64,000 bases of DNA from NCBI GenBank assembly GCA_900314215.1, contig OMUK01000101.1, positions 9,830 through 73,829 of the forward strand, read 5' to 3'. Source of the DNA: an uncultured Prevotellaceae bacterium. Lineage in GTDB: Bacteria > Bacteroidota > Bacteroidia > Bacteroidales > Muribaculaceae. The notes under the pieces were generated by a model, which had not been told where the DNA came from, did no database searches, and saw only the letters and a list, made by a program, of their open reading frames with translations. Shown in pieces: positions 33,087 to 49,909 of this stretch (the first letter of the stretch is position 1; each line of letters opens with the position of its first letter). Both the position numbers and the translations under genes were made by a program.

Positions 33087-35183
33087 ATGAGAAAACTACT
33101 GACTTTATGTTTTGCACTCATGTCGATGTTGATTGCCACGCCACAGCTTCGAGCCGAAGAGGTGGCGGCGACGCCGCCCGGCAACGAGGCGTCCTCCACA
33201 GGCGAGCAACTCGGCACAATGCCAAGTAGTGTGAGCGCAGTGTTCAGGCAGATCGAGCGGGTGAATGCCGCCGGCATCCAGGCTGGCGACGCCACTGTCG
33301 ACAAGGTCGAGCCTCAATCGCCCCAATTCAAGCAGGGCAAGGCACAGTTGAGCCTGAGCCCCATCGTGCAGCAAGCACGCAAGGCAAGCCGCAAGGCAGC
33401 CACCCTGGCCACCGGCGAGTATTTCTCGCGCGACTCCAGCTACTATGACAACGACAACTACAGCCACATGGCACTCGTCATTGCCGATGGCAGCGCCAAG
33501 ATGATTAATGTGTACAGCTACGGCGACACCATCGATGTGAACTACAACGTCTCGACGGGCGCCTTCTCCATCCCGGCGCAGAAGTTGTATCACTTCGACA
33601 CCTATGGCGATGTGTATGCCTGCCCGGTGAGCTTCAGCAGCGGCGCGGTGACCTACAGCACCACTGGCTCGATAAGCGGCACGGTGGCCGACGACGGCAC
33701 CATCACCCTGCAGCCCTGGGGCATCTTTGTGATAAGCGGCGACTACACCGGTTCGGTGGTCAACGCTTTCTATATGAGCGCCTGGCACCCCAAGAACGCC
33801 ACCATCAAGACCTACAATGCCAAGCATGTGCTCACGAGCTACAGCGCCTATGTAGAGCAGAATGCCGACAACGAAATCAGGGTCTACAACTTCAGCAACA
33901 CGGGCAACGTGACAGGCAACGGCTATGTGGGCGGCATCGCCTCAAGCGTGTCGGGCGGCAACACACTGGAGTATTGCGAGAACACTGGCAACGTCGAGAC
34001 CGTGCGCAGCTCGTCGTCGGCAATCTACACCGGCGGCATCGCTGCCTACGTGAGCGGCACTGCCACCAATCCCGCCTATGCGCGCTACCTGCTCAACAAG
34101 GCTCCTGTCACCAGCCAAGGCTCCTATGTGGGCGGCGTGATAGGCAACTTCAGCAATGCCGAGGCCACAGGCCTCTACAATGCTGGCAAGGTCACTGCCA
34201 CACACTACGGCACGGGCTCGAGCGCTCGCTATGCCACCTATGTGGGCGGCGTGGTTGGCATGTTCGCCGGCCAGGGCAATGTGATGTGGAATATTGCCGA
34301 CGTCACTGCCGAGGGCTACGCCGTGGGCGGTATCGCCGGCCAGGGCAACGGCACCGTGTCGCAATGCTTCAACGCAGGCAATATGCATGCCGACGGTCAG
34401 GGCAAGTCGTCGCTGGCCAGCGCCGGCGGAATATGGGGCGTGGGACGCCCGTCGATCAACGGCTGCTACAACCTGGGCACTGTGAATGGCCCCGACAAGA
34501 TTGCAGGCATCATAGTCGAATTGGCCAACACCGGCAGCATCACCAATTGCTACAACGCTGGCGTGCTCGCACCCACAGCAACTGGCGCCTCAATCGTGAA
34601 GAGCATCGCCTACCAGAGCGGAGCCACTGCCACCTGCTCGGGCAATGCCTACCTGAGCGACATCAACGAGGCTTATCCCGACACAGCACACGGCATCCCC
34701 GTCACAATTGACCAACTCATGGCGGGCGAAGGCCTTGCCGACCTCTACGTGATCAATCGCGCTGCCTATCCCGTGCCCGACTCGCTCATAGGCGAGCCCA
34801 TCGCACGCTACTATGCAGCCAGCCTGGCCTTCGCACCTGGCGACAGCGCAATGGGAGTGACGCAGAACTTCTATGTGGGCGCACTCGACAGCGTGGCATG
34901 GACCTCGAGCGACAACATCTCGATCGACGCCACTGGCACCGCCACTGCCCAAGTGGGCAATGGCTGGGTGAAAAAGTCAATCTCGTGGAATGGCATCGAC
35001 CTGGAGCGCCAGTATGCCATCAACGTGCTTGAGACCACCGGCATCAACGGCATCAACACCAATGGCAGCGACAACGCCATCGACAAGCGCATCTACAGCA
35101 TCGACGGCCGCTACATGGGCACCGATGCCAGCGTGCTGCCAAGCGGCATCTACATCCAGGGCGGAAAGAAGCACATCAAGTAA
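33087..35183 (+). CDS. Secreted T9SS-type protein with GLUG-like repeats
   Basis: Signal peptide; repeated NxGxV...YVGGI units; C-terminal TGINGI...IYSIDGRY...LPSGIYIQGGKKHIK. Confidence 0.85.
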   Translation: MRKLLTLCFALMSMLIATPQLRAEEVAATPPGNEASSTGEQLGTMPSSVSAVFRQIERVNAAGIQAGDATVDKVEPQSPQFKQGKAQLSLSPIVQQARKASRKAATLATGEYFSRDSSYYDNDNYSHMALVIADGSAKMINVYSYGDTIDVNYNVSTGAFSIPAQKLYHFDTYGDVYACPVSFSSGAVTYSTTGSISGTVADDGTITLQPWGIFVISGDYTGSVVNAFYMSAWHPKNATIKTYNAKHVLTSYSAYVEQNADNEIRVYNFSNTGNVTGNGYVGGIASSVSGGNTLEYCENTGNVETVRSSSSAIYTGGIAAYVSGTATNPAYARYLLNKAPVTSQGSYVGGVIGNFSNAEATGLYNAGKVTATHYGTGSSARYATYVGGVVGMFAGQGNVMWNIADVTAEGYAVGGIAGQGNGTVSQCFNAGNMHADGQGKSSLASAGGIWGVGRPSINGCYNLGTVNGPDKIAGIIVELANTGSITNCYNAGVLAPTATGASIVKSIAYQSGATATCSGNAYLSDINEAYPDTAHGIPVTIDQLMAGEGLADLYVINRAAYPVPDSLIGEPIARYYAASLAFAPGDSAMGVTQNFYVGALDSVAWTSSDNISIDATGTATAQVGNGWVKKSISWNGIDLERQYAINVLETTGINGINTNGSDNAIDKRIYSIDGRYMGTDASVLPSGIYIQGGKKHIK

Positions 35184-35351: not shown

Positions 35352-36230
35352 ATGCAGATAAGCAAATACATGGTGGCATCGCCACACGACTGCCAGTGGG
35401 GCCTCACGGTGAGCACCGTGGGACTCGACGAGATTGCTCCCGGCGACGCCTACCCCACCAGCGGCCACGCCGACGGCTACTACTTCGACCCGCGCAAGGG
35501 GCGCACGCTCGAGGAGTACCAGATGCTCTATCTCGTGGAGGGCGAGGGCACCTTTGAGTCGGCCACAATGACGGCCACGCGCATCAAGGGCGGCGACCTC
35601 TTCCTGCTCTTCCCCGGCGAGTGGCACACCTATTGCCCCCTGCCCAGCTCGCACTGGAAAAGCTACTGGATAGGCTACAAAGGCCGCAACATGGACGACC
35701 GCGTGAAAGCCGGCTTCCTCACTCCCGAGAAGCCCATCTACCACGTGGGCTTCTCGGCCGAGATTGTGCGCCTCTACGAGACGGCGCTCAAGACGGCTCA
35801 GAGCGAGCCAGCCTATGTGCAGCCCATTCTGGCCGGCATCGTCAACCACCTGGTGGGATTGATGTACTCGCTGGAGCGCAACCGGCAACTCAGCCAGAAG
35901 CCGAGCCACATCGACGAGATCAACCAGGCTCGCCTGCGCATACGCCAGTCGCTCGAGCAGGACCTGAGCATTCAGCGCATTGCCAAGGACCTGGGCATGA
36001 GCTACAGCAGCTTCCGCAAGTTCTTCAAGGAGTACACCGGCATCTCACCCGCCCTCTACCAGCAGGACCTGCGCCTGCAGCGTGCCAAGGAGCTGCTCAC
36101 CACCACCTCGATGAGCATCAAGAGCATAGCCTATCAACTGCAGTTTGAGTCGCCCGACTACTTCTCCAGCAAGTTTAAGAACAAGACCGGAATGAAACCC
36201 AGCGACTTCCGCTCGATGCACCAAGCTTAG
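35352..36230 (+). CDS. rhaR: AraC-family regulator, probable rhamnose regulator
   Basis: Bacteroides-type AraC (GRTLEEYQMLY, FPGEWHTY, FESPDYFS); directly upstream of rhaB. Confidence 0.8.
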   Translation: MQISKYMVASPHDCQWGLTVSTVGLDEIAPGDAYPTSGHADGYYFDPRKGRTLEEYQMLYLVEGEGTFESATMTATRIKGGDLFLLFPGEWHTYCPLPSSHWKSYWIGYKGRNMDDRVKAGFLTPEKPIYHVGFSAEIVRLYETALKTAQSEPAYVQPILAGIVNHLVGLMYSLERNRQLSQKPSHIDEINQARLRIRQSLEQDLSIQRIAKDLGMSYSSFRKFFKEYTGISPALYQQDLRLQRAKELLTTTSMSIKSIAYQLQFESPDYFSSKFKNKTGMKPSDFRSMHQA

Positions 36231-36365
36231 CCATTGCCACCCCCACACACACAGCGCGATTTTGTGCAAAACGTGAAGGCCAAAAATCAAATAACAAAGT
36301 CGCAGGCCGAAAATATGGCCTAAATTTGTGGCAACAAAAACTTAAATGACAACATCCCAAAAACT

Positions 36366-37835
36366 ATGAATACTGCAAAGAGCTATTTCGCCGTTGACCT
36401 GGGTGCCACCAGCGGCCGCACCATCGTGGGCACCATCGAGCACGGGCAGGTGAAGCTCGAGGAGCTCACCCGATTTTCCAACCCCATCATCGAGCTGCAG
36501 GGCCACTGCTACTGGGACCTCTACGCCCTCTATAACGAAATCATAAAAGGTCTCAAGACCGCCGCCAGAGAGGGCGTGCAGGTGCAAAGCATAGGTATCG
36601 ACACCTGGGGCTGCGACTTTGTGGCCGTGGGCCACGACGGCGCGTTGCTCTCCAATCCCCTCTGCTATCGCGACCCCCACACGGCCCACACCATGCAGGC
36701 CTATTTCGCCGAGTCGATCGACCGCAAGCAGGTGTATGCCAAGACGGGTATCCAGTTTATGAACTTCAACTCCTTGTTTCAGCTCTACCAGATGCACAAA
36801 GACGGCAACGTGGCCCTGTGCAACGCCAGCAAGATACTCTTCATCCCCGACGCGCTGAGCTATCTGCTCACGGGCAAGGCCGTGTGCGAGTACACCGTGG
36901 CCTCGACCTCGCAGTTGCTCAACCCCATGCAGGGTGACCTCGACCCCGACCTGCTCAAGTCGGCAGGCCTCACGCGCGAGCAGTTTGGGCCCATGACCCA
37001 GCCTGGCACCGTGATAGGCACCCTCACGCCCGAGGTGCAACGCCTCACGGGGCTGGGCGAGGTGCCAGTGGTGGCTGTGGCTGGCCACGACACTGCCTCG
37101 GCTGTGGCTGCCGTGCCAGCGCGCGACGAGCACTTTGCCTATCTCTCGTCGGGCACATGGAGCCTCATGGGCATCGAGACCCGCAATGCCATCATCAACC
37201 AGGAGAGCTACGACAAGAACTTCACCAACGAGGGCGGCATCGGCGGCACCACCCGCTTCTTGAAAAACATATGCGGCATGTGGATATATGAGTGCTGCCG
37301 CCGCGAGTGGAAGGGCACCGTCGACGTCAGCCACGCCAAGTTGCAGCACGAGGCCATGCAACAGCCTGCCTTCAGGAGCCTCATCAATCCCGACGACCCT
37401 GCCTTTGCCAACCCCACATCGATGCTCCAGGCCATCGACGACTACTGCCGCGGCACCCAGCAGCCCGTGCCCGCCAGCCCGGCGGCCTATTGCCGCTGCA
37501 TCTTCGAGTCGCTGGCCCTGCGCTACCGTCAGGTTTTCTCGTGGCTCAAGGAGTTTGCCCTCTTCCCCATCGAGGTGCTCCACATCATAGGCGGCGGCGC
37601 CATGAATGAGTATCTCGACCAGTTCACCGCCAACTCATGCGGCGTGGTGGTGCTCGCCGGTCCGCAAGAGGGCACCGCCCTGGGCAACATCATGCTCCAG
37701 GCCAAAGCCAGCGGCGAGGTGGGCGACACATGGCAGATGCGCCGCATCATTGCCCAGTCGATCTCGCTCAAGCGATTTGAGCCTCGCGACAAGCAGGCTT
37801 GGGATGCCGCCTATGAGCGTTTCCTCCATCTTTAA
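36366..37835 (+). CDS. rhaB: Rhamnulokinase
   Basis: AVDLGATSGR, GIDTWGCD, TGIQFMNFNSLFQL, SSGTWSLMG, NFTNEGG; -7 box TAAATTTG at 36321. Confidence 0.95.
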   Translation: MNTAKSYFAVDLGATSGRTIVGTIEHGQVKLEELTRFSNPIIELQGHCYWDLYALYNEIIKGLKTAAREGVQVQSIGIDTWGCDFVAVGHDGALLSNPLCYRDPHTAHTMQAYFAESIDRKQVYAKTGIQFMNFNSLFQLYQMHKDGNVALCNASKILFIPDALSYLLTGKAVCEYTVASTSQLLNPMQGDLDPDLLKSAGLTREQFGPMTQPGTVIGTLTPEVQRLTGLGEVPVVAVAGHDTASAVAAVPARDEHFAYLSSGTWSLMGIETRNAIINQESYDKNFTNEGGIGGTTRFLKNICGMWIYECCRREWKGTVDVSHAKLQHEAMQQPAFRSLINPDDPAFANPTSMLQAIDDYCRGTQQPVPASPAAYCRCIFESLALRYRQVFSWLKEFALFPIEVLHIIGGGAMNEYLDQFTANSCGVVVLAGPQEGTALGNIMLQAKASGEVGDTWQMRRIIAQSISLKRFEPRDKQAWDAAYERFLHL

Positions 37836-37886
37836 TCACCACAACACGACATAAAATAACAACAAAAAAATATAAACCACGACATT

Positions 37887-39140
37887 ATGAAATCAGAAAT
37901 CATCGAGAAAAATTACCAAGTAGCACGGGAGCGCTATGCCGCCCTGGGCATCGACACCGACAAGGCCATCGCCACCCTCGAGCAGACGCCAATAAGCCTG
38001 CATTGCTGGCAGGCCGACGACGTGGTGGGCTTTGAGCGCAACGTGGCTGCCTCGGGCGGCATCCAGACCACCGGCAACTACCCCGGCAAGGCCCGCAACA
38101 TCGACGAGCTGCGCCAGGACATCGCCGAGGTGATCTCGCTGCTGGCCGGCACCTTCCGCCTCAACCTGCACGAGACCTACGGCGAGTTTGGCGGCACATT
38201 TGTCGACCGCGACCAGGTGGAGGTGAAGCACTTCACGGGCTGGATGGACTGGGCCAAGGAGCACAACCTCAAGCTCGACTTCAACTCCACCAGCTTCTCG
38301 CACCCCAAGAGCGGCAATCTCACGCTGAGCAACCCCGACAAGGAGATACGCGACTTCTGGATTGAGCACACCAAGCGCTGCCGTCGCATCGCCGACGCCA
38401 TGGGCAAGGCCCAGGGCGACCCCTGCATGATGAACATATGGATACACGACGGCTCCAAGGACTACACCGTAGAGAAGCTGCGCTACCGCCAAATCTTGAA
38501 AGAAAGCCTCGACGACATCCTCGCCGAGCCGCTGCCCAACATGAAGACCTGCCTCGAGGCCAAGCTTTTCGGCATCGGGCTGGAGGCCTACACCGTGGGC
38601 TCCCACGACTTCTATGCCGGCTACTGCGCCAAGAATAACGTGATCTACACCCTCGACACCGGCCACTACGAGCCCACCGAGAACGTGAGCGACGCCGTGA
38701 GCTCGCTGCTGCTCTTTGTGCCCGAACTCATGCTCCACGTGTCGCGCCCCATGCACTGGGACAGCGACCACGTGACCCTCTACGACGACAACACGCGCAA
38801 CCTCTTTGCCGAGCTCGTGCGTGCCAATGCCCTCGACCGTGCCCACATAGGCCTCGACTACTTCGACGCCAGCATCAACCGCATCGGCGCCTATATCATA
38901 GGCGTGCGCGCTGCCCAGAAGAGCTTGCTGCAAGCCCTGCTCGAGCCCCTCGACACACTGCGCCGCTACGAGGACGAGGGCAAACTCTTTGAGCGCCTGG
39001 CCCTGCTCGAGGAGGAGAAGACGCTGCCGATGGGTGCCGTCTACGACTACTACAACCTGAAGCATGGCGTGCCCGTGGCCGAGGACTACATAGGCCAAGT
39101 AGTGCAATATGAGCGCGACGTGCTCGCCAAGCGCAACTAA
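37887..39140 (+). CDS. rhaA: L-rhamnose isomerase
   Basis: ISLHCWQADDV.GFE, TGNYPGKAR, LHVSRP.HWDSDHV, GLDYFDASINRI. Confidence 0.97.
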   Translation: MKSEIIEKNYQVARERYAALGIDTDKAIATLEQTPISLHCWQADDVVGFERNVAASGGIQTTGNYPGKARNIDELRQDIAEVISLLAGTFRLNLHETYGEFGGTFVDRDQVEVKHFTGWMDWAKEHNLKLDFNSTSFSHPKSGNLTLSNPDKEIRDFWIEHTKRCRRIADAMGKAQGDPCMMNIWIHDGSKDYTVEKLRYRQILKESLDDILAEPLPNMKTCLEAKLFGIGLEAYTVGSHDFYAGYCAKNNVIYTLDTGHYEPTENVSDAVSSLLLFVPELMLHVSRPMHWDSDHVTLYDDNTRNLFAELVRANALDRAHIGLDYFDASINRIGAYIIGVRAAQKSLLQALLEPLDTLRRYEDEGKLFERLALLEEEKTLPMGAVYDYYNLKHGVPVAEDYIGQVVQYERDVLAKRN

Positions 39141-39154
39141 ACGTGCAACCCGTG

Positions 39155-39193
39155 ATGCCCCCGCACCGCGGCATGCTGTCGCGGTGCGGGCAT
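39155..39193 (+). other. Intercistronic GC-rich hairpin between rhaA and rhaT
   Basis: ATGCCC(C)CGCACCGCGGCA / TGTCGCGGTGCGGGCAT, no T tail; mRNA stabiliser or partial terminator. Confidence 0.55.
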
Positions 39194-39216
39194 TCACAAC
39201 AATATGACCTATCGAA

Positions 39217-40251
39217 ATGGATATCATCATCGGACTACTGATTATCGCAGTGGGCGCCTTCTGCCAGTCGAGCTGCTACGTGCCCATCAATAAGATCAAG
39301 GACTGGTCGTGGGAGAGCTACTGGATTGTGCAGGGCATATTTGCCTGGATTGTGTTTCCCCTGCTGGGAGCCCTGCTGGCTGTGCCCGCCGGGCATAGCC
39401 TCATGGAACTCTACGGCTCGGCCAGCTCCTTCAATGTGTGGATGACCATATTCTTCGGCGTGCTGTGGGGCGTGGGCGGTCTCACCTTCGGCCTCTCGAT
39501 GCGCTACCTGGGAGTGGCCTTGGGGCAAAGCATCGCACTGGGCACCTGCGCCGCACTGGGCACCATCATGGGCCCGGTACTGCTCAATGTGTTCTTTCCC
39601 AGCCTCAACGCCCTGTCGCAGCTCACCCTGGCCGTGATATTCGGCGTGGTGGTCACCCTCGTGGGCATCGCCATCATAGGCGTGGCCGGCTCGATGAAGG
39701 CCTCCTCGCTGAGCGACGAGGAGAAGAAGGCCGCCGTGAAGGACTTCAACTTCCCCAAGGGCCTGGCCATCGCCCTGCTGGCCGGCTTCATGAGCGGTTG
39801 CTTCAACGTGGGCCTGGAATTTGGCAAGGACATCAACTTCGGCTCGCTCACCGACCCCATGTTTAAGACGCTGCCAGCCACCCTGCTTGTCACCCTGGGT
39901 GGCTTTGTGACCAATGCCGTGTACTGCTTCTTCCAGAATCAGAAGAACCACACCTGGGGCGACTACCGCAAGGGTCGCGTGTGGGCCAACAACCTGCTCT
40001 TCTGCGCCCTGGCCGGCGTGCTGTGGTACTCGCAGTTCTTCGGCCTCTCGCTGGGCAAGGGCTTCCTCACCTCGTCGCCCACGCTCATGACCCTCTCATT
40101 CTGCATCCTGATGGCTCTCAACGTGGTCTTCTCCAACGTGTGGGGCATCATCCTCAAGGAGTGGAAAGGGTGCTCGCGCAAGACCATCGTGGTACTCGTC
40201 GTGGGCATCGTGGTGCTCATCGTCTCCTCGTTTGTGCCCCAGCTCCTCTAG
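39217..40251 (+). CDS. rhaT: L-rhamnose/proton symporter
   Basis: DWSWESYW, LWGVGGLTFGLSMRYLG..LG, WYSQFF, SNVWGIILKEW. Confidence 0.95.
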   Translation: MDIIIGLLIIAVGAFCQSSCYVPINKIKDWSWESYWIVQGIFAWIVFPLLGALLAVPAGHSLMELYGSASSFNVWMTIFFGVLWGVGGLTFGLSMRYLGVALGQSIALGTCAALGTIMGPVLLNVFFPSLNALSQLTLAVIFGVVVTLVGIAIIGVAGSMKASSLSDEEKKAAVKDFNFPKGLAIALLAGFMSGCFNVGLEFGKDINFGSLTDPMFKTLPATLLVTLGGFVTNAVYCFFQNQKNHTWGDYRKGRVWANNLLFCALAGVLWYSQFFGLSLGKGFLTSSPTLMTLSFCILMALNVVFSNVWGIILKEWKGCSRKTIVVLVVGIVVLIVSSFVPQLL

Positions 40252-40435
40252 GCCATAGCACGCAGGCCGGGCGGGGCAAGAAGATTATTGCAAAATGTAA
40301 CGTTTTTTTGGTATAAATGACGCAAAATATTGCTGAAAATGCAGTAACTTTGTGAATGTGATTGTAAGGCGCCACAATTGGCTCTTGCCCACCTTCTAAA
40401 GCGCGTATATACCGCCATAGATTTAGCATAGACAC

Positions 40436-41677
40436 ATGGCTACCGAAATTCTACATCCTTTTTCCCGCCCGCTCTACGTGTTGCTCAAGCCTGTGGATGC
40501 CTCGTGCAACCTGCGGTGCAAGTATTGCTACTACCTGGAGAAGCAGAAGCTATACTCCGCCCAGGACAAGCACATCATGAGCGACGCGCTGCTCGACAAG
40601 TTCACCTACGACTACATACACGCCCAGACCATGCAAGAGGTGCTCTTCACCTGGCATGGCGGCGAGCCCCTGATGCGCCCGCTTTCCTTCTACAAGCGGG
40701 CCATGCAGCTGCAGCGGCAATATGCCGACGGGCATATCATCGCCAACTCGCTGCAGACCAACGGCACCATGCTCACCGACGAGTGGTGCGAGTTTCTCAA
40801 GCAGAACAACTGGCTGGTGGGCATCTCGATCGACGGGCCGCAGGACTTCCACGACGAGTACCGCCGCAACGCTCAGGGCGGGCCCTCGTGGGTGAAGGTG
40901 ATGCGCGGCATCAAGCTGCTCAAGAAGCATGGCGTGCAATGGAACGCCATGGCCGTGGTCAACGACTACAACGCCGACTATCCACTGGAATTCTACAACT
41001 TCTTCAAGGAGAACGGCTGCCAGTACCTGCAGCTCACGCCCATCGTGGAGCGCATCGTCGAGCACGCCGACGGCCGGCACCTGGCCACCCTGGGCGACAG
41101 CGACGACGCGCCGCTGGCCGATTTCTCGGTCACGCCCGAGCAGTGGGGCGACTTCCTGATAGCCATCTTCGACGAGTGGGTGCGCCACGACGTGGGCCGC
41201 TTCTATGTGGAGACCTTCGACTGCATGCTTGCCAACTGGGCAGGCGTTGACCCAGGCATATGCATGTATGGCAAGGAGTGCGGCCATGCAGGCGTGATGG
41301 AGTATAACGGCGATGTGTACAGCTGCGACCACTTTGTGTTTCCCGAGTACAAGCTGGGCAACATCTACACCTCCACGCTCTACAACATGCTCTACGGCGA
41401 GAAGCAGCACCGCTTCAGCCAGCTCAAGCACAAGTCGCTGCCACAGCAGTGCCTGGAGTGCGACTACGAGTTTGCCTGCCACGGCGAGTGCCCCAAAAAC
41501 CGGTTTGCGCGCGACCGCTACGGCAACCCGGGCCTCAACTACCTGTGCAAGGGCTACCACCGCTTTCTCGATCACATTGCCCCCTACATGGACTACATGA
41601 AGCAGCAACTCGACCGCAAGCAGCCGCCAGCCGCCATCATGCAGGCATTGCGCGACGGCACCTTCAAGGCCAAATAA
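40436..41677 (+). CDS. chuR: Anaerobic sulfatase-maturating radical SAM enzyme (anSME)
   Basis: CNLRCKYCYY, WHGGEPL, LQTNG, SIDGP, SPASM YSCDHFV and CHGECPKNRF; own -7 box TAACTTTG at 40345. Confidence 0.95.
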   Translation: MATEILHPFSRPLYVLLKPVDASCNLRCKYCYYLEKQKLYSAQDKHIMSDALLDKFTYDYIHAQTMQEVLFTWHGGEPLMRPLSFYKRAMQLQRQYADGHIIANSLQTNGTMLTDEWCEFLKQNNWLVGISIDGPQDFHDEYRRNAQGGPSWVKVMRGIKLLKKHGVQWNAMAVVNDYNADYPLEFYNFFKENGCQYLQLTPIVERIVEHADGRHLATLGDSDDAPLADFSVTPEQWGDFLIAIFDEWVRHDVGRFYVETFDCMLANWAGVDPGICMYGKECGHAGVMEYNGDVYSCDHFVFPEYKLGNIYTSTLYNMLYGEKQHRFSQLKHKSLPQQCLECDYEFACHGECPKNRFARDRYGNPGLNYLCKGYHRFLDHIAPYMDYMKQQLDRKQPPAAIMQALRDGTFKAK

Positions 41678-41728
41678 CTCATCGACAACCAAAAGTTTTT
41701 TTTCAAGTTTTCCTAAATCATAACCAAT

Positions 41729-43414
41729 ATGAACCGCTTTTATTTAACCGCAGGCATGCTCTCCCTGCTTCCAGGACTGCAAGCTGCCGCACAATCGCAG
41801 CAAGCCCAGCGACCCAACATCATCTACATCATGAGCGACGACCACGCCTATCAGGCCATCAGCGCCTATGGCAGCGAGGTGTCGAAGCTTGCCCCCACCC
41901 CCAACATCGACCGCATCGCCAAGGCCGGTGTCACGTTTGACCGCGCCTTTGTGGAGAACTCGCTCTCCACGCCCAGCCGCGCTTGCACCCTCACGGGCCT
42001 CTACAGCCACCAGAACGGGCAGGAACAGCTCAACGAGGGCATGGACCCCACCAAGCCCTTCGTGTCGGAACTGCTGCAAAAATGCGGCTACCAGACTGCC
42101 GTGATCGGCAAGTGGCACGTGCCTTGCGACCCCAAGGGATTTGACTACTACCACATCTACAACGGCCAGGGCGAGTACTACAACCCCAACTTCCGCGGCT
42201 CTGACACGGGCGGCAAATATGTGCAAGAGCACGGCTACTGCGTCGACCTCGTCGACAAGCACGCCAAGGAGTTTCTCGACAACCGCGACAAGTCGAAGCC
42301 CTTCTTCCTGATGGTGCACTTCAAGGCGCCACACCGCAACCAGATGCCCAACCTCAAGTATCTGGGCCTCTTCGACGACGTGAAGTTCCCGCTGCCCACG
42401 ACCTTCTGGGATGACTACTCCACCCGCCAGTCGCCAGCCCACACCCAGAAGATGAGCATCACCAATCACATGGAGCTCATCCAAGACCTGAAGGTGGTGC
42501 AGATGAAGGATTCACTCAAGGATGCCTACAACCAGGGCTTCTCGTGGTTCTGCTACCGTGCCGGCGTGGAGCGCATGACGCCCGACCAGAGAGCCGCCTG
42601 GAACCGCTACTACATGCCGCGCGGCGAGGAGTTCCTCAACGCCCATCTCACGGGCCGAGCCCTCTCGGAGTGGAAATACCAAGCCTACATGCGCGACTAC
42701 CTGGCTTGCGTGCGCAGCATCGACGATGCTGTGGGCGACATCCTCGACTACCTCAAGGCCAACGGGCTCGACGAGAACACCGTGGTCATCTACACCAGCG
42801 ACCAGGGCTTCTACCTGGGCGAGCACAACTGGTTCGACAAGCGCTTCATGTATGAGCAAAGCTTGCGCACCCCGCTGCTCATGGCCTGGAAGGGACACAT
42901 CAACCCCGGCACCCGCTGCAACGCCATGGTGCAGAACATCGACTACGCCCCCACCTTCCTCTCGCTGGCTGGCGGCAAGAAGACCGACGAGATGAGCGGC
43001 CTCGACCTGCAGCAAGTGTGGAATGGCCAGACGCCTAAGACCTGGCGCACGAGCATCTACTACCACTACTACGACTACCCGGCATTCCACCAGGTGCGCC
43101 GTCACGACGGTGTGCGCACCGACCGCTACAAGCTCATCAGCTTCTACGGCAAGGGCGGCACTCGCGCCGAGACCAACTGGTACCAGACCGACCCCAAGGC
43201 TCAGGAGTACCGCATCCTGCACTGGCTGCGCAGCATGAACTACACCGACGACAACGATCCCGACCTGAAGGACTGCTACGAGCTCTACGACCTGCAGAAC
43301 GATCCCGACGAGTTGCACAACATCTACGGCCAGCCCGGCACCGAGAAGATCACCAATGACTTGATGAAGCTCCTCAACAAGTACCGCAAAGACCTGAAGG
43401 TGCAAGAGTACTAA
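41729..43414 (+). CDS. Periplasmic Ser-type sulfatase (family S1)
   Basis: Signal peptide, PNIIYIMSDDH, SLSTPSRA (SxPxR), GKWH, YTSDQGFYLGEHNWFDKRFMYE. Confidence 0.95.
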   Translation: MNRFYLTAGMLSLLPGLQAAAQSQQAQRPNIIYIMSDDHAYQAISAYGSEVSKLAPTPNIDRIAKAGVTFDRAFVENSLSTPSRACTLTGLYSHQNGQEQLNEGMDPTKPFVSELLQKCGYQTAVIGKWHVPCDPKGFDYYHIYNGQGEYYNPNFRGSDTGGKYVQEHGYCVDLVDKHAKEFLDNRDKSKPFFLMVHFKAPHRNQMPNLKYLGLFDDVKFPLPTTFWDDYSTRQSPAHTQKMSITNHMELIQDLKVVQMKDSLKDAYNQGFSWFCYRAGVERMTPDQRAAWNRYYMPRGEEFLNAHLTGRALSEWKYQAYMRDYLACVRSIDDAVGDILDYLKANGLDENTVVIYTSDQGFYLGEHNWFDKRFMYEQSLRTPLLMAWKGHINPGTRCNAMVQNIDYAPTFLSLAGGKKTDEMSGLDLQQVWNGQTPKTWRTSIYYHYYDYPAFHQVRRHDGVRTDRYKLISFYGKGGTRAETNWYQTDPKAQEYRILHWLRSMNYTDDNDPDLKDCYELYDLQNDPDELHNIYGQPGTEKITNDLMKLLNKYRKDLKVQEY

Positions 43415-43461
43415 CGCTCACACCCGGGCATTGACCACCCGGCAATCCGCAACACAACACC

Positions 43462-43506
43462 AGGCGGGGCGTGCCACACACTCACAGTGTGCAACACGCC
43501 CCGCCT
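43462..43506. terminator. Hairpin between convergent sulfatase and rhaD
   Basis: AGGCGGGGCGTG / CACGCCCCGCCT. Confidence 0.7.
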
Positions 43507-43538
43507 GCTTGTTGATTAAGAGATTTAGTGAGGTCTCT

Positions 43539-44348
43539 TTATTTTGGCAAATGGAACACGTCGCTGATTTCTTGCATCTGCGCCTGGGTCATGCCCTCGG
43601 GCACAAAGCCCATGCAGCGGGCGTCGAGGTAAATCTTAGCGCTCTTGGAGAGCACGTCGATCTGGTCGAAGGCGTCCATCACATCCTGGCCCTTGGCAAA
43701 GACGCCATGCTTCTCCCACATCACCACGTCGTAGTCCTCGAGCTCGTGGAGCGTGGCCTGTGCCAGCTTGTTGCTGCCGGGCAGCTCATAGGGCACAATG
43801 CCCAGGCCCAGCGGGCAGAAGGCCTTGGTCTCGGGAATCATGCTCCACAGCAGGCGTGTGAGCACGTCCTTGCCCAGGAAGTCACGATTGTGGCTCATGG
43901 CCACCAGTTCGATGGGATGGGTGTGCACCGTGGCCTTGTAGCCGCTGCCCAGCTCAAGTTGGCGGTCGTGCACAGCCAGGTGCGAGGGCAACTCGCTGGT
44001 GGGAGCCACTGGGTTGTCGGCAATGATCTCGTAGCTGGCGCAGTCGTCGAGGATGCGTATCACGCTGCCATTCTCCATGGGCCATCGAGCCAGGTCGCGC
44101 ATGCGCTTGCCCGTGCCCTTGCAGAAGAAATACTGCCCTTTCAGGTGGGGCAACGCCTCGCCTATGGGGTAAACCGGCGAGATGGCAGGCAGTGCCCGAA
44201 CCTCGTCGTCGATGCAGTCGGTCACATTGATCGTGATATTGCCGCCGTTGCGCTCGGCCCAGCCGTTTTGCCACAGGTAGCCAGCCACCTCGGCAACCTT
44301 GTCCACTTCACGTTTCAGGGCGGGACGACCCTCGAGGATTGATTTCAT
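43539..44348 (-). CDS. rhaD: Rhamnulose-1-phosphate aldolase
   Basis: Start MKSILE at 44348; GWAERNGGNI, PTSELPSHL, HTHP, WSMIPE, WEKHG; -7 box TATCTTTG at 44386-44393. Confidence 0.95.
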   Translation of the reverse strand: MKSILEGRPALKREVDKVAEVAGYLWQNGWAERNGGNITINVTDCIDDEVRALPAISPVYPIGEALPHLKGQYFFCKGTGKRMRDLARWPMENGSVIRILDDCASYEIIADNPVAPTSELPSHLAVHDRQLELGSGYKATVHTHPIELVAMSHNRDFLGKDVLTRLLWSMIPETKAFCPLGLGIVPYELPGSNKLAQATLHELEDYDVVMWEKHGVFAKGQDVMDAFDQIDVLSKSAKIYLDARCMGFVPEGMTQAQMQEISDVFHLPK

Positions 44349-44501
44349 TGTTCCAGTTTTTAAATTTTGTCGTTGTTTTCTATCGCAAAGATAGGCATTC
44401 TTGCCGTCAATGCCCATCTACTTTTTGATTAATCACCCTTCAATTTTGACCAAGGCCGTGCAACATGCCAGCGCGAGGCAGGCCGCAGGCTGCAAGCGGT
44501 G

Positions 44502-44545
44502 AAAACAAAGGCTGCCTGAGGACACACAGTCCCGGCAGCCTTTGC
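44502..44545 (-). terminator. Intrinsic terminator
   Basis: CAAAGGCTGCC / GGCAGCCTTTG stem with a T tail on the minus strand. Confidence 0.7.
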
Positions 44546-44573: not shown

Positions 44574-45782
44574 TTACACCTCCAGGTCGATATTGAATTG
44601 CTCATGCCAGGGCAGACCGCTCTTGGCCACCTGCTCCAGGAATGGGTCGGGGTCAAACTCCTCCACGTTGTGCACGCCGGGCTTCTTCCACAGGCCCTTG
44701 AAAAACATCATGGCACCCGTCATGGCAGGCACGCCGGTGGTGTAGCTCACGGCCTGCATGCCGGTCTCCTCATAGGCGGCGTGGTGGTCGCAGTTGTTGT
44801 AGATGTAGTAGGTGAGCGGCTTGCCGTCGAGCCCAATGCCGCTTATGCGGCAGCCAATCGAGGTCTTGCCGGTGTAGTTCTTGCCCAGATCCTGCGGGTT
44901 GGGGAGCACGGCCTTGAGAAATTGCAGGGGGATGATTTCCTGGCCATTATACATCACGGGGTCGATGCGGGCCATACCTATGTCTTGTATCACGCGCAGG
45001 TGGGTGAGGTATTCCTTGCCGAAGGTCATCCAGAAGCGGGCGCGCTTGATGGTGGGGAAATTCTTGGTGAGCGACTCCAGCTCCTCGTGATACATGAGGT
45101 AGCTCTCGCGCTCGCCTATCTCGGGATAGGTGAGGGGCTTGTGTATCTCGAGCGGGCCGGTGGTCACCCACTTGCCGTCCTGGTAGTAACGGCCGTTTTG
45201 CGTGATTTCGCGTATGTTGATCTCGGGGTTGAAATTGGTGGCGAAGGCCTTGCCGTGGTTGCCGGCGTTGCAGTCCACGATGTCGAGGGTGTGCATCTCC
45301 TTGAAGTGGTGCTTGGCGGCACGGGCGGTGTAGACGCCGCTCACGCCGGGGTCGAAGCCGCAACCCAGTATGGCGGTGAGGCCGGCCTTCTCAAATTTGT
45401 CGCGGTAGGCCCACTGCCAGCTGTACTCAAAGTGGGCCACATCCTTGGGCTCATAGTTGGCCGTGTCGAGGTAGTTGACGCCGCATTCCAGGCAGGCGTC
45501 CATGATAGTAAGGTCCTGGTAAGGCAGGGCCAGGTTGATCACCAGCTGCGGCTTGTGCCGCTTGAGCAGGGCCACAAGCTGCGGCACCTCGTCGGCGTCG
45601 ACCTGGTCGGTGACGATGTTGTTCACTCCCAGGCGGCTCTTGATGTCGGCAGCCACCTTGTCGCATTTCTCCTTGTGCCGCGAGGCAATCACTATCTCGT
45701 TGAACACGTCGGGGTTCTGGGCGCACTTGAAGGCGCACACGGTGCCCACGCCGCCGCAACCAATAATTAGTACTTTGTTCAT
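44574..45782 (-). CDS. Saccharopine-dehydrogenase-family protein, probable carboxyspermidine dehydrogenase
   Basis: GCGGVG, NLALPYQDL, YLDTANYE, GCGFDPG, ATNFNPEINIRE, QAVSYTTGVPA. Confidence 0.88.
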   Translation of the reverse strand: MNKVLIIGCGGVGTVCAFKCAQNPDVFNEIVIASRHKEKCDKVAADIKSRLGVNNIVTDQVDADEVPQLVALLKRHKPQLVINLALPYQDLTIMDACLECGVNYLDTANYEPKDVAHFEYSWQWAYRDKFEKAGLTAILGCGFDPGVSGVYTARAAKHHFKEMHTLDIVDCNAGNHGKAFATNFNPEINIREITQNGRYYQDGKWVTTGPLEIHKPLTYPEIGERESYLMYHEELESLTKNFPTIKRARFWMTFGKEYLTHLRVIQDIGMARIDPVMYNGQEIIPLQFLKAVLPNPQDLGKNYTGKTSIGCRISGIGLDGKPLTYYIYNNCDHHAAYEETGMQAVSYTTGVPAMTGAMMFFKGLWKKPGVHNVEEFDPDPFLEQVAKSGLPWHEQFNIDLEV

Positions 45783-46006: not shown

Positions 46007-47692
46007 ATGAAAAAAATTGCTACCCTCATGATCACATCGCTCTTGTGCCTGGCAGCCCAGGCCCAAGGCTTCAGTCCCGCTCATGCACGAGTCAACGGCA
46101 CCCCGTTCAAGAAGACGGCCGTCACGCTCGGGCAGCTGCAAGAGCGCGGCCTCGTGCGCAAGGCCGTGGCCCGTGCCAGCGACGAGAAACCCATCACCAC
46201 GGCTCCCGAGGGCCGGCTGCTCGACAACATGTATGTCAACTCCAACAGCTTCGGCCTGGGCTGGGGCTCGGCCTACACTCAGGTGGTCGACGGCGGCCTG
46301 GGCGGCGTGGTCGAGGGCAAAGACGGCTACGTCTATGTGAAAGGCCCCATCTCGCAAGCCTACGTGTGGGGCCTGGGCTCGCCCTGGATCAAGTGCAAGA
46401 AGCTCGCTGGCGACACCATCGAGATGATCACCCCGCAAATCTATGCCATCGATGCCGGCGACCCCTACTATGTGCAACGCATGACCTATGACAAGACGGG
46501 CGACACCTATGTGGTCGACTCGACCGAGGCCGGCATCAAGTTCACTTGGAAAAGCGACACACTGCGCCAGGTCGACGACTGCCTGGTGGGCTTTGCCGAC
46601 GCCACCGGCGGCTGGTTCTACATGGGCGACTACAACATCGTCTACACGGTGAACCCCGACAAGCTGGTCACCATCAACAAGGACCAGACCCAGGGCATCG
46701 ACACCTCGCTGGTGAGAGTGACCCACATCGCCAGCCCCGAGAAGCTCGACTCCACGATCACGACCATGATCAACGCCTATGCCGTGGTCGATGTCGACGA
46801 CGAGATGGTGGGGAACTCCATCTATGTCGACCACCTCGAGCCAACCCTGCCCGATGCCCTGGTCAAGCTGAGCGCCAATGTAGCGACCATGGCCCTTGAG
46901 CTGCCCTCGGGCCAGTACCTGGGTGTCGATGAGAACTACAACTCCCACATCTACGCCCTCACCGGCAACGCCTATATCGACAGCACGGGCACTACCAAGT
47001 ATTTCAACTACAACAAGACCAGCAAGCTCACACTGGGCTCCACCGAGGAGGGCGACACCATCTATGCGCCCTACCCTGCCTCGCTCATCATCAACTGCGG
47101 CCGCAACAACCTCTACATTGTGAAGGAATATGTAGCACCGCTGCTTGAAGAGGTCGACGACGAGGCCATGACACCGGCCAACCCCGTGTTCACGAGCGAC
47201 AACGTGACCCGCTCCACCCGCTTCGACGTGCTCAAGTTCACCATTCCCACGGTCGATGTCGACGGCGATGAGCTCAACACCAACAACCTGTACTACTGCA
47301 TCTACTACAACGACTCGGTCTACACCTTCACGCCCGCCCTCTACACCGGCCTCAAGACCGACATGACCGAGATACCCTACGGCTTCAGCGACAGCAACTA
47401 CGACATCTTCCTGAGCGGCGGCCAGCACACCATCTACTTCTACGACAAGAATTGGACCAAGATAGGCGTGCAGAGCATATACCGCGGCGGCGGCGAGGTG
47501 CGCAAGTCGGCCGTCGTGTGGGTCAACAGCGAGACCGGTGTGACCGACGTGAACGTGGCCGGCAAGACGGTGAAGCGCGTCACCTACTACGACCTCTCGG
47601 GTCGCCAGGTGAGCCCCGATGCCAGCGGCATCCTCATCAAGCGCACTGCCTATACCGACGGCACCACCGCAACACGCAAGGTTGTGAAGTAA
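46007..47692 (+). CDS. Secreted T9SS-type hypothetical protein
   Basis: Signal peptide; beta-rich Tyr/Thr body; CTD TGVTDV...YYDLSGRQV...GILIKR...TATRKVVK. Confidence 0.85.
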   Translation: MKKIATLMITSLLCLAAQAQGFSPAHARVNGTPFKKTAVTLGQLQERGLVRKAVARASDEKPITTAPEGRLLDNMYVNSNSFGLGWGSAYTQVVDGGLGGVVEGKDGYVYVKGPISQAYVWGLGSPWIKCKKLAGDTIEMITPQIYAIDAGDPYYVQRMTYDKTGDTYVVDSTEAGIKFTWKSDTLRQVDDCLVGFADATGGWFYMGDYNIVYTVNPDKLVTINKDQTQGIDTSLVRVTHIASPEKLDSTITTMINAYAVVDVDDEMVGNSIYVDHLEPTLPDALVKLSANVATMALELPSGQYLGVDENYNSHIYALTGNAYIDSTGTTKYFNYNKTSKLTLGSTEEGDTIYAPYPASLIINCGRNNLYIVKEYVAPLLEEVDDEAMTPANPVFTSDNVTRSTRFDVLKFTIPTVDVDGDELNTNNLYYCIYYNDSVYTFTPALYTGLKTDMTEIPYGFSDSNYDIFLSGGQHTIYFYDKNWTKIGVQSIYRGGGEVRKSAVVWVNSETGVTDVNVAGKTVKRVTYYDLSGRQVSPDASGILIKRTAYTDGTTATRKVVK

Positions 47693-47753: not shown

Positions 47754-47869
47754 TTGAGCCAGCCATCGTGACCTGCCAGGTGAGGAAAACAGGAAATATT
47801 TTGCAATGTCACGGGAAATGTATAATTTTGCAAACGATTAGTATTAAGGACAATAAAACAAAATTCAAA

Positions 47870-49909
47870 ATGAAAAAATTCTACACCCTACTGGCTCTCG
47901 TTGCCATCGCAACGGCATCGTGGGCCCAGAGTGCAATGTTCGACTTTGCCCACAACGGCGTAGCCCTGCTGGGCCTTGCCGGCACCTCGTCGAGCACCAG
48001 CACCGATGGCGACATCACTGCCGACAAGACTGCGACCGTCGACGGCGTCACCTTCACAGTGAGCGCCAGCACCACCAACACCGCCAACCGCCTCTACAGC
48101 GACTACAACGGCAACGTGCAGTTGCGCGTCTACGGCGGCACCGTCACCATCGCAGCCCCCACGGGCAAGAGCGTGACCGGCGTCACCTTCTACAACAGCC
48201 GCTGGAGTGAGCCCACTCCCAGCACAGGCTCCTTCTCGAGCAACAACTGGCTGGGCAGCGCCAGCTCGGTCGTGTTTACCGCCAATGGCCAAATGCGCCT
48301 CGACTCGGTGCGCGTGGCATATAGCGATGGCGGCACCACGCCCGACACCACCGACACCACAGGCACCAAGCTCAACACCTTCAAGATGCTGCGCGACACC
48401 ATCGCCGACGGCACCGAGTTCACCTTTACCGGCAACGCCATGGTGTGCTACCAGTGGGGCCGCTACCTGTATCTGCGCTGCTATGACCCCACCGACGGCT
48501 ATGGCTACAGCGCACTGGTATATGGCAACGTGGGCAACACCTACAAGCAGGGCGACTACATCCCCGCCGGCTGGAAGGGCACCAAGACCATGTATCACGG
48601 CATGTGCGAGATCACCAAGCCCACCGGCTTCAACGCCTCGACCCTGCAGGCCGACAGCGCCGACTGGGGCCCCATGGACATGAGCGGCTACCTGGGCTTC
48701 TTTGTGGATGCACCACAGGGCTATGAGGCCGACTACGACCTCTTCCAGAACGTGACGCTGAGCAGCGTCGACAGCACGGGCAACTTCGCCATCACCGAGG
48801 TGGGCCTCAACGCCCAGCAAGAGGAAGGCACCTACACCATGCCGGCCTGCAACCGCTTTGGCATCGACCTGCCTACCGACACCACCCAGCACTACACGGT
48901 GGAGGGCGTGCTCAACATCTACAACAACAAGGCCGAGTTCCTGCCCACCAAGGTCTATGCCTACGACTGGTCGACCCGCCTGTGGAAAGTGTGGTACCAG
49001 GGCGAGGACAGCACCGCCTACCAGATTGCCGACACCCTCTATGTGATACCCACCCCTGCCGCTATTGAGCCCGAGGCCGGCAGCAAGAACCTGGTGTATG
49101 TGACCGACAACGCCACGAGCGTGCTCATCGACTTCTATGCCGACTGGGGCTACACCTGGTGGCAAGACTGGGATCCCGACTTCATCGCCATCGACTGCGG
49201 CGACAACACCGACCTCTACAAGAAGCTGAGCGCCATGAAGGCCATCGCTCCGCGCACCGTCGAGGGCACCCTCTACAACAACTACACCAACCCGCGCCTT
49301 GTGCTCAGCAAGACTCCCGAGGCCCTTGCCGGCGTCGACATGCCCGAAATCGCCTATAGCGAGTTCACCCTCGCCGCTCCCGACACGCTCAGCGCCAACG
49401 GCAACCAGGTGGCTTGGGTCGACGGCATCTACAAGAGAGACAGCCTGGGCAACGAGTATCTCATGGGCTACAACCAAGACGGCAGCCTCTTCCAGCAAGT
49501 GAAGCTCGACCGCCGCTATCTGGCCATGACCATTGCCTTCAACGAGGGCGATGAATACAGCATGCGCGTGGTCTTCAAGCAGCTCGAGCCCTGGGAGGAT
49601 GCCGACGACGATGACAGCACCGAGGCCAACCTGACTCCACGCCAGCGTGCAGCCCGCCCTGTGATGCCTGCCCGCGTGCCCAGCAAGATGAAGACCAACG
49701 ACCCGCACTGGTACAACAACTACATCGCGTGCCCGCTTGAGTTCAGAGAACTCACTGGCGTCAACACCGTGAGCACAGCCAAGACGGTGAAGAGCGTGCG
49801 CTACTACAACATCGCCGGCATCGAGAGCAACCAGCCTCTCGACGGCGTCAACATTGTGGTCACCACCTACACCGACGGCACCACCGCCACCAGCAAGCTC
49901 ATGAAGTAA
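47870..49909 (+). CDS. Secreted T9SS-type protein with probable OB-fold modules
   Basis: Start MKKFYTL at 47870 (-7 box TAATTTTG at 47823); GNAMVCYQ.GRYLY...YKQGDYIPAGWKG and YTVEGVLNIYNNKAEFLP resemble extracellular OB-folds; CTD TGVNTV...YYNIAG...ATSKLMK. Confidence 0.8.
   Translation: MKKFYTLLALVAIATASWAQSAMFDFAHNGVALLGLAGTSSSTSTDGDITADKTATVDGVTFTVSASTTNTANRLYSDYNGNVQLRVYGGTVTIAAPTGKSVTGVTFYNSRWSEPTPSTGSFSSNNWLGSASSVVFTANGQMRLDSVRVAYSDGGTTPDTTDTTGTKLNTFKMLRDTIADGTEFTFTGNAMVCYQWGRYLYLRCYDPTDGYGYSALVYGNVGNTYKQGDYIPAGWKGTKTMYHGMCEITKPTGFNASTLQADSADWGPMDMSGYLGFFVDAPQGYEADYDLFQNVTLSSVDSTGNFAITEVGLNAQQEEGTYTMPACNRFGIDLPTDTTQHYTVEGVLNIYNNKAEFLPTKVYAYDWSTRLWKVWYQGEDSTAYQIADTLYVIPTPAAIEPEAGSKNLVYVTDNATSVLIDFYADWGYTWWQDWDPDFIAIDCGDNTDLYKKLSAMKAIAPRTVEGTLYNNYTNPRLVLSKTPEALAGVDMPEIAYSEFTLAAPDTLSANGNQVAWVDGIYKRDSLGNEYLMGYNQDGSLFQQVKLDRRYLAMTIAFNEGDEYSMRVVFKQLEPWEDADDDDSTEANLTPRQRAARPVMPARVPSKMKTNDPHWYNNYIACPLEFRELTGVNTVSTAKTVKSVRYYNIAGIESNQPLDGVNIVVTTYTDGTTATSKLMK

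Follow-up and report, generated by a model that had tools for sequence, protein, structure and literature searches.

In the 64,000-nt stretch of DNA analyzed here (hereafter the window), we found an L-rhamnose catabolic cluster that holds a desulfation module, namely, the gene for an anaerobic sulfatase-maturating enzyme (anSME) followed by that for an exported Ser-type sulfatase, between rhaT and an inverted rhaD. The host genome is a 90%-complete metagenome-assembled genome (MAG) in 140 contigs and represents a cattle-rumen Muribaculaceae species. The best explanation is probably that the module was acquired horizontally and came to lie in the rha cluster, with rhaD inverted and the lactaldehyde reductase gene (fucO) lost. 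The juxtaposition of sulfatase and rha genes is most likely historical and does not point to a pathway for sulfated rhamnose. Adjacency of genes in Bacteroidales is thus insufficient for inferring substrate; in this case, the reading that adjacency suggested was overturned by specificity determinants at the family level and by surveying relatives.

Rhamnose genes and local signals

The locus runs araC/rhaR-rhaB-rhaA-rhaT, anSME, the sulfatase gene, and a convergent rhaD. A preliminary description of this DNA had given the same gene set and order, and every gene was found where it had placed it. An AraC-family regulator, rhaB, rhaA, rhaT, and rhaD together make a bona fide cluster for L-rhamnose catabolism. 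Scores above the cut-offs of rhamnose-specific equivalog models were obtained for rhaA (L-rhamnose isomerase; 37887..39140, plus strand; NF002203, 627 bits, cut-off 572), rhaT (L-rhamnose/H+ symporter; 39217..40251, plus strand; NF010022, 373 bits, cut-off 369), and rhaD (rhamnulose-1-phosphate aldolase; 43539..44348, minus strand; NF002963, 299 bits, cut-off 170). The score of rhaB (rhamnulokinase; 36366..37835, plus strand; TIGR02627, 511 bits, E 2e-153) is marginally under its cut-off of 528, and the gene product is 60% identical to RhaB of congeners. The AraC-family regulator (35352..36230, plus strand) has a cupin domain (PF02311) and an HTH domain (PF12833); its presumed identity as RhaR is based on position because it reached no equivalog cut-off.

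The rhamnose operon of Bacteroides thetaiotaomicron consists of rhaKIPAO plus rhaR. A kinase, an isomerase, a RhaT permease, a class II aldolase, and an AraC-type regulator are common to both systems, but here neither the locus nor the assembled genome has the lactaldehyde reductase, rhaT and rhaD are separated by two unrelated genes, and rhaD is inverted with a promoter of its own. The inversion had been noted before and is confirmed: rhaD, which is 78% identical to its counterparts in congeners, lies on the strand opposite to rhaBAT, 3.3 kb away from rhaT and convergent with the sulfatase gene. The Bacteroides-type arrangement of five collinear genes on one strand, absent here, is found in the congener G076. 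In that genome, only 3 nt separate rhaT from rhaD, both on one strand, and a true lactaldehyde reductase gene follows rhaD (630 bits; this is the only congener checked for it). In the host genome, no fucO lies near the locus, in agreement with the earlier description, and none scores over the cut-off genome-wide in the 90%-complete MAG; the best match has 214 bits compared with the cut-off of 523. Three generic Fe-ADHs are encoded on contigs C23, C97, and C16. A search of the window for fucO remnants also found none. This poses a small metabolic question, as the species has the rhamnose pathway but neither a recognizable lactaldehyde reductase nor a recognizable aldehyde dehydrogenase.

For promoters, we scanned for the Bacteroidetes-type -7 box (TAnnTTTG, consensus match only); sigma-70 scans are uninformative in Bacteroidota. 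Such boxes were found 45 nt 5' of the rhaB ATG (TAAATTTG; 36321..36328, plus strand), in the AT-rich spacer of 184 nt between rhaT and anSME (40252..40435, plus strand; TAACTTTG at 40345-40352), and 45 nt 5' of the rhaD ATG (TATCTTTG; 44386..44393, minus strand). The last two are consistent with the separate promoters that had been attributed to anSME and rhaD. No terminator-like hairpin was found in the 184-nt spacer, so that transcription from the rhamnose promoter may continue into anSME. Between the convergent sulfatase gene and rhaD, the repeat and hairpin scan identified a GC-rich hairpin of 20 bp (43461..43507), which is likely a bidirectional terminator of the two genes. It alone stands out among the inverted and direct repeats that were sought as marks of inversion or insertion junctions. 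By inspection only, a hairpin followed by a T-run was seen at about 44510-44540, after the saccharopine-dehydrogenase-family gene upstream of rhaD. The regions upstream of araC, rhaB, anSME, and rhaD share operator-like words of 8-10 nt only, in approximately the number expected by chance, and no RhaR box could be proposed from them.

The maturase and the sulfatase

The anSME gene (40436..41677, plus strand) encodes a radical-SAM/SPASM protein that scores well above two equivalog cut-offs (NF010308, 745 bits compared with 484; TIGR03942, 458 bits compared with 349). The protein has the radical-SAM cluster motif CX3CX2C at residues 24-31 (C24/C28/C31), the SPASM domain PF13186, and nine auxiliary Cys residues in the C-terminal half (263, 276, 282, 297, 339, 342, 348, 352, and 371). 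It is the single over-cut-off match in the genome. One other S1 sulfatase is encoded there, an S1_15-like enzyme on contig C121 that is unlinked to the rha locus, and the sole maturase must therefore also mature it. The anSME/ChuR of B. thetaiotaomicron, one maturase for all Ser-type sulfatases of its genome, is similar in its domains, Cys motifs, single genomic copy, and service to unlinked clients; the difference is that the anSME gene here immediately precedes the gene for one of the two sulfatases that the enzyme serves.

The sulfatase gene (41729..43414, plus strand; PF00884 and PF16347) encodes an S1_11-like enzyme, predicted to be of the exo GlcNAc-6-O-sulfatase type. Its formylglycine motif C/S-x-P-x-R is of the Ser type (S80-T-P-S-R84), and its N-terminus has a signal-like segment without a lipobox Cys; both features fit the earlier assignment as a periplasmic Ser-type sulfatase, the location being a prediction. 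The best solved relatives are 7p24, 9s03, 5g2v, 7ebp, and 9s8y (E 1e-124 to 1e-140). By its residue numbering, 7P24 is BT3177; 5G2V and 9S8Y are BT4656 and Amuc1074, respectively, and all three are S1_11 GlcNAc-6-O-sulfatases. As a proxy for S1_11 membership, these five relatives include every identified S1_11 enzyme, and no other subfamily matches better than E 1e-42. In the alignment with BT3177 and BT4656, the metal ligands D37/D38 and D358/Q359 fall on the SDDH/TDDH and SDQG motifs of those enzymes, and the triad that recognizes 6S-gluco sugars is kept, with D370/R372/H454 aligned to D361/R363/H445 of BT3177. Judged by its sequence, the sulfatase thus falls among the S1_11 enzymes that remove 6-O-sulfate from gluco-configured sugars. 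The likeness to BT3177, BT4656, and Amuc1074 covers full-length similarity, the formylglycine Ser, the metal ligands, the Asp/Arg/His triad, and the predicted periplasmic location. However, the solved enzymes are encoded in PULs for mucin or heparan rather than in a rha cluster, and approximately 40 extra residues (475-515) of the locus sulfatase do not align to them.

The closest similarity is not to a rhamnose-sulfate sulfatase. The sulfatase domain of 6HR5, the ulvan rhamnose-sulfatase structure, matches in two partial stretches at E 1.4e-37, compared with 1e-140 for S1_11 enzymes. Rhamnose is a 6-deoxy sugar and has no O6, the position targeted by S1_11 enzymes, and the sulfated-rhamnose reading is therefore disfavored; action of the locus sulfatase on rhamnose sulfates is not expected from its sequence. 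By family membership, the anSME would act in the cytoplasm on the sulfatase precursor, turning its Ser80 into formylglycine prior to export. In the periplasm, the mature sulfatase would then cleave the 6-O-sulfate of terminal sugars with gluco configuration, for example, GlcNAc-6S in glycans of the mucin, keratan, or heparan type. The same maturase would also serve the unlinked S1_15-like sulfatase, a predicted Gal/GalNAc-6-sulfatase. The locus exemplifies a minimal, transferable maturase-plus-sulfatase module, which is predicted to open 6-O-sulfated host-type glycans to an otherwise sulfatase-poor rumen Muribaculaceae species. The host genome also encodes two GH20 hexosaminidases.

Distribution among relatives and source of the module

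The orthologous anSME-sulfatase pair is absent from the 132 other species in the genus. A sulfatase-anSME pair occurs in just one of these congeners, G393, and is non-orthologous (46% and 62% identity); these values are not compatible with vertical orthology because five congeners share 85-88% identity in a core protein. In the 12 kb of the G393 contig that were examined, no rha genes lie near the pair. Collinear rhaB-A-T-D is found in the congeners G076, G073, and G008. The preliminary description had offered a neutral rearrangement as one possible reading, and the synteny survey supports it, as the linkage occurs in one species and the congeners keep rhaB-A-T-D. Among 300 genomes sampled from the order Bacteroidales, anSME was found in 83 and rhaA in 69; approximately 42 have both, and of those, only the host genome has the two on the same contig and no more than 400 kb apart. 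The arrangement is shared by none of the 160 loci with sulfatase homologs, in approximately 17 of which anSME is paired with the sulfatase. We also looked for the insertion boundaries by synteny around the core saccharopine-dehydrogenase-family gene, the neighbors of which are not conserved among congeners.

The closest pair was recovered by a metagenome scan from locus L093 of an unrelated bacterium (82% and 77% identity). This locus has the order HTCS-anSME-sulfatase-GH3-S1_11 sulfatase, and its HTCS, GH3, and YaaA proteins have only 28-50% identity to those of the host genome. The closest relatives of our anSME and sulfatase thus keep the gene order and common strand seen in the window, but in L093 a second sulfatase gene and GH3 lie between them and an HTCS gene lies upstream. 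All of these are absent from the window, and a search of it for remnants of GH3, the second sulfatase, and HTCS found none. In the sulfatase tree, the window and L093 sequences pair with 100% support within a clade rich in Prevotellaceae labels, far from the sulfatase of the congener. Composition gave no sign of a recent transfer: the GC3 of anSME and the sulfatase gene is 0.87, the same as that of the rha genes, so any transfer must be old or must have involved a donor with a composition like that of the host. We infer that horizontal transfer brought in the module from a Bacteroidales lineage of the rumen or gut, in which the closest pair belongs to an HTCS-regulated sulfatase/GH3 operon, and that the same or a linked rearrangement may have inverted rhaD, given it its own promoter, and removed the lactaldehyde reductase of the operon.

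Competing readings of the juxtaposition

An artifact of assembly, i.e., a chimeric contig joining the rha operon to the sulfatase locus of another organism, could be suspected because the genome is a 140-contig MAG and the closest relatives of the sulfatase fall in other families. However, the rhaT/anSME, anSME/sulfatase, and sulfatase/rhaD junctions are each bridged by contigs with zero differences in four independent bovine-gut studies and are therefore not a misassembly; with GC3 also uniform over the junctions, we regard a chimera as next to impossible. The preliminary description had offered, as its other reading, use of sulfated rhamnose or sulfated rhamnose-containing glycans, such that the locus would be a pathway for sulfated rhamnose or ulvan/rhamnan sulfate in which desulfation precedes RhaT, RhaA, RhaB, and RhaD. 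The sulfatase does adjoin the rha genes on the same strand, and in the Rikenellaceae-labeled MAG G433, one locus joins a GH78 rhamnosidase, rhaT-rhaA-rhaK, five sulfatases, and an anSME. This proposal is nevertheless very improbable and is not supported by the analysis, given an S1_11-like enzyme that keeps the 6S-gluco triad, a substrate that lacks O6, and the weak match to 6hr5. Moreover, the linkage is seen in 0 of 132 congeners, the four G433 sulfatases that were classified (of five) are of mucin type (S1_20-, S1_15-, and S1_16-like plus one S1_11-like), and no rhamnosidase, PUL, or lyase adjoins the locus in the window, where the neighbors are a GLUG-like surface protein and uncharacterized proteins.

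A role in regulation is easier to entertain, although we consider it rather unlikely. The module may have been kept 3' of rhaT because its own promoter is supplemented by transcription reading through from the rhamnose promoter, with the sulfatase still acting on 6S-GlcNAc-type sugars; deoxyhexose availability would then raise sulfatase maturation and 6-O-desulfation and couple sulfated-glycan foraging to a sugar signal. The co-directional genes with a terminator-free spacer are consistent with this, as are the identical arrangement in cattle samples from several studies, an S1_11-like sulfatase after fucI-O-A-K-P in one Prevotella clade (L027, L096, L098, and L099), and another directly 3' of rhaT-rhaA-rhaK in G433. 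That such sulfatases adjoin deoxyhexose operons in two further lineages is a hint of possible selection for the association. A still less probable extension is that S1_11-type modules repeatedly settle 3' of 6-deoxyhexose operons through selection for released deoxyhexose as an inducer, for which sulfated, deoxyhexose-decorated glycans, e.g., sulfo-Lewis-type epitopes of salivary or gut mucin, are candidate substrates. On the other side, anSME has its own -7 box, the fuc adjacency is limited to one narrow clade, the sister species of G433 (G435 and G436) hold their rha and sulfatase blocks apart, and rha genes occur near the sulfatase in 1 of 160 other loci, which is not clearly above chance. 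Read-through coupling, if real, would show a sugar signal co-opted to control sulfatase maturation, and the inducer reading, if true, would be a regulatory logic so far undescribed in gut Bacteroidales. Historical acquisition of the module remains our preferred explanation.

The identical protein is carried by 24 contigs. The flanking ORFs at 33087-35183, 46007-47692, and 47768-49909 have no match in Pfam, NCBIfam, or PDB; a protein atlas gave a GLUG-like lead for the ORF at 33087-35183 only.

Gene content of the rhamnose locus

Gene mapping based on the ORF list and scans of Pfam and NCBIfam recovered the layout given in the preliminary description, which was exact to the base. On the plus strand, a gene for an AraC-family regulator with cupin and HTH domains (35352-36230) is followed by rhaB (36366-37835; TIGR02627, 511 bits), rhaA (37887-39140; NF002203, 627 bits), rhaT (39217-40251; NF010022, 373 bits), anSME (40436-41677; NF010308, 745 bits), and an S1 sulfatase gene (41729-43414). 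An AT-rich spacer of 184 nt (40252-40435) lies between rhaT and anSME, and 51 nt separate anSME from the sulfatase gene. By comparison with these genes, rhaD (43539-44348; NF002963, 299 bits) is inverted and located on the minus strand. A near-perfect, GC-rich hairpin of 20 bp (43461-43507) between the convergent sulfatase gene and rhaD is probably a bidirectional terminator for both. By inspection, another hairpin with a T-run was found between rhaD and the gene upstream of it, a core gene of the saccharopine dehydrogenase family (44574-45782, minus strand). Matches to the -7 box consensus TAnnTTTG precede rhaB, anSME, and rhaD, in agreement with the proposal that the latter two have their own promoters. 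All components of the locus belong to well-known families. Upstream of the AraC gene, the ORF at 33087-35183 (698 aa) has no match in Pfam, NCBIfam, or PDB; its placement in a protein atlas is close to surface proteins of the GLUG-motif and BACON types, which may serve as a lead.

Predicted specificity of the sulfatase

The sulfatase is of the Ser type (motif S80-T-P-S-R84) and has a signal-peptide-like N-terminus with no lipobox cysteine. Its five top solved relatives are 7P24, 9S03, 5G2V, 7EBP, and 9S8Y (E = 1e-124 to 1e-140), among which 7P24 corresponds to BT3177 (by residue numbering), 5G2V to BT4656, and 9S8Y to Amuc1074. These three are characterized GlcNAc-6-O-sulfatases of the SulfAtlas subfamily S1_11. 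Matches to the next subfamilies have E-values of 1e-42 or weaker, and the match to 6HR5, an ulvan rhamnose-sulfatase entry, is only 1e-37. S1_11 enzymes cleave sulfate at O6, and in the literature, their specificity is defined by an Asp/Arg/His triad, which binds a gluco-configured sugar at O4 and O3 (D361, R363, and H445 in BT3177; found in 91% of the subfamily). In our alignment, D370, R372, and H454 of the sulfatase correspond to this triad, and the metal ligands D37, D38, D358, and Q359 are all present. L-Rhamnose is a 6-deoxy sugar and cannot carry an O6-sulfate. Homology to these enzymes predicts that the sulfatase acts on terminal 6-O-sulfated sugars of the GlcNAc type rather than on a rhamnose sulfate, which argues against the earlier suggestion that the locus is used for sulfated rhamnose.

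The anSME of this locus is the only one in the genome. Among the six PF00884 matches, two are S1-sulfatase-like, namely, the gene in this locus and one on contig C121 (S1_15-like, Gal/GalNAc-6-sulfatase type; E = 1e-198 to 7P26). This maturase thus serves both members of the sulfatase complement rather than the rhamnose locus in particular. Two GH20 hexosaminidases are encoded elsewhere in the genome and could act downstream of desulfation.

Distribution and origin of the anSME-sulfatase pair

The host genome, a 90%-complete MAG, totals 2.88 Mb across 140 contigs. A chimeric assembly was ruled out, because the rhaT/anSME, anSME/sulfatase, and sulfatase/rhaD junctions are all bridged without differences by contigs from four independent studies; the 6-kb stretch recurs in bovine-gut metagenomes of seven studies. 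Named homologs of the neighboring core protein (85-88% identity) are labeled Muribaculaceae or Sodaliphilus, which places the organism among the rumen Muribaculaceae. For five congeners, the identity of a core protein amounts to 85-88%, while a related sulfatase was found in only one of the 132 other species representatives of the genus (G393; 46% identity, with an adjacent anSME at 62%) and a partial anSME (56%) was found in G073 on a contig other than that with the rha operon, such that these low identities do not reflect vertical orthology. The G393 pair (L173:279-3290) lies at a contig end and is non-orthologous to the pair in the window; the examined 12 kb of its contig contain no rha genes.

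The rha genes have a patchy distribution in the genus, with rhaD in four and rhaT in three of the 60 congeners sampled. In G076, G073, and G008, rhaB-rhaA-rhaT-rhaD are on a single strand; in G076, the rhaT-rhaD gap is 3 nt, and a true lactaldehyde reductase gene (630 bits; cut-off 537) comes next after rhaD. A synteny survey had been proposed in the preliminary description. In an order-wide sample of 300 genomes, 83 have anSME, 69 have rhaA, and about 42 have both, and this genome is the only one with the two genes on one contig within 400 kb. Similarly, none of the 160 loci with sulfatase homologs in the genome and metagenome collections has the arrangement of the window. An anSME adjoins the sulfatase gene in about 17 of these loci, indicating that the pairing is a recurrent module.

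The nearest relatives of both genes together (82% identity for the sulfatase and 77% for anSME) were found in the metagenome contig L093, which has a GC content of 51% and the following gene order: HTCS regulator, anSME, second sulfatase, GH3, and S1_11 sulfatase. The HTCS, GH3, and YaaA of this contig are just 28-50% identical to the host genome. In the maximum-likelihood tree, the sulfatases of the window and L093 are paired with 100% SH-aLRT support and nested in a well-supported clade of mostly Prevotellaceae-labeled gut and rumen MAGs, and the G393 sulfatase has a long branch near the root. Taken together, these sequence relationships point to horizontal acquisition of the pair. The GC3 of the pair is 0.87, the same as that of the rha genes; therefore, the transfer was not recent or the donor was similar in composition. 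The earlier interpretation of a rearrangement was supported and can be extended as follows: a module of maturase and S1_11 sulfatase was probably acquired horizontally and lodged between rhaT and rhaD, with inversion of rhaD and loss of the lactaldehyde reductase gene. A search of the window for remnants of fucO, GH3, and the second sulfatase found none, and the genus comparison revealed no conserved synteny around the neighboring core gene. In L093, units of roughly 19-20 nt (GCGGTCGCCACGTGATGCT-like) are repeated in tandem at positions 1250-1425, within the 530-nt spacer between the HTCS and anSME genes.

Possible coupling to deoxyhexose operons and the fate of lactaldehyde

The appeal of this locus rests on a possible read-through coupling and the missing lactaldehyde step. 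No terminator-like hairpin was found in the rhaT-anSME spacer, such that transcription from the rhamnose promoter may possibly continue into the anSME-sulfatase pair. Other associations with deoxyhexose genes exist. The S1_11-like sulfatase gene of a single narrow Prevotella clade (L027, L096, L098, and L099, from metagenome contigs and MAGs of Prevotella sp.) is about 60% identical to that of the window and is located immediately downstream of fucI-fucO-fucA-fucK-fucP in the same orientation (e.g., L027:1109-9686). In the Rikenellaceae-labeled MAG G433, five S1 sulfatase genes in tandem come after a divergent GH78 alpha-L-rhamnosidase gene and rhaT-rhaA-rhaK (FGGY kinase). They share the strand of the rha genes, as do the genes for a Na+/H+ exchanger and an esterase that come next, and anSME is encoded on the other strand (L072:1-14188 and L180:646-6247). 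Four of these five sulfatases were classified and are of the host-glycan type (three nearest to S1_20, S1_15, and S1_16 structures and one S1_11-like). In its sister species G435 and G436, the GH78-rhaTAK block lacks sulfatases and the rha and sulfatase blocks are separate, indicating that G433 represents another lineage-specific juxtaposition. Finding two deoxyhexose-adjacent events in a set of 160 non-independent loci is suggestive but does not clearly exceed the number that the clustering of sugar-utilization genes would produce.

For lactaldehyde, the preliminary description noted that its fate was unexplained locally, and the genome-wide search likewise found no lactaldehyde reductase at the cut-off (best score ~214 bits vs. 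523). Neither fucI nor any aldehyde dehydrogenase of the PF00171 family was detected in the 90%-complete assembly. The ~214-bit scores come from two of the three generic Fe-ADHs (on contigs C23, C97, and C16), and one such enzyme would be the most likely substitute for the lactaldehyde reductase.
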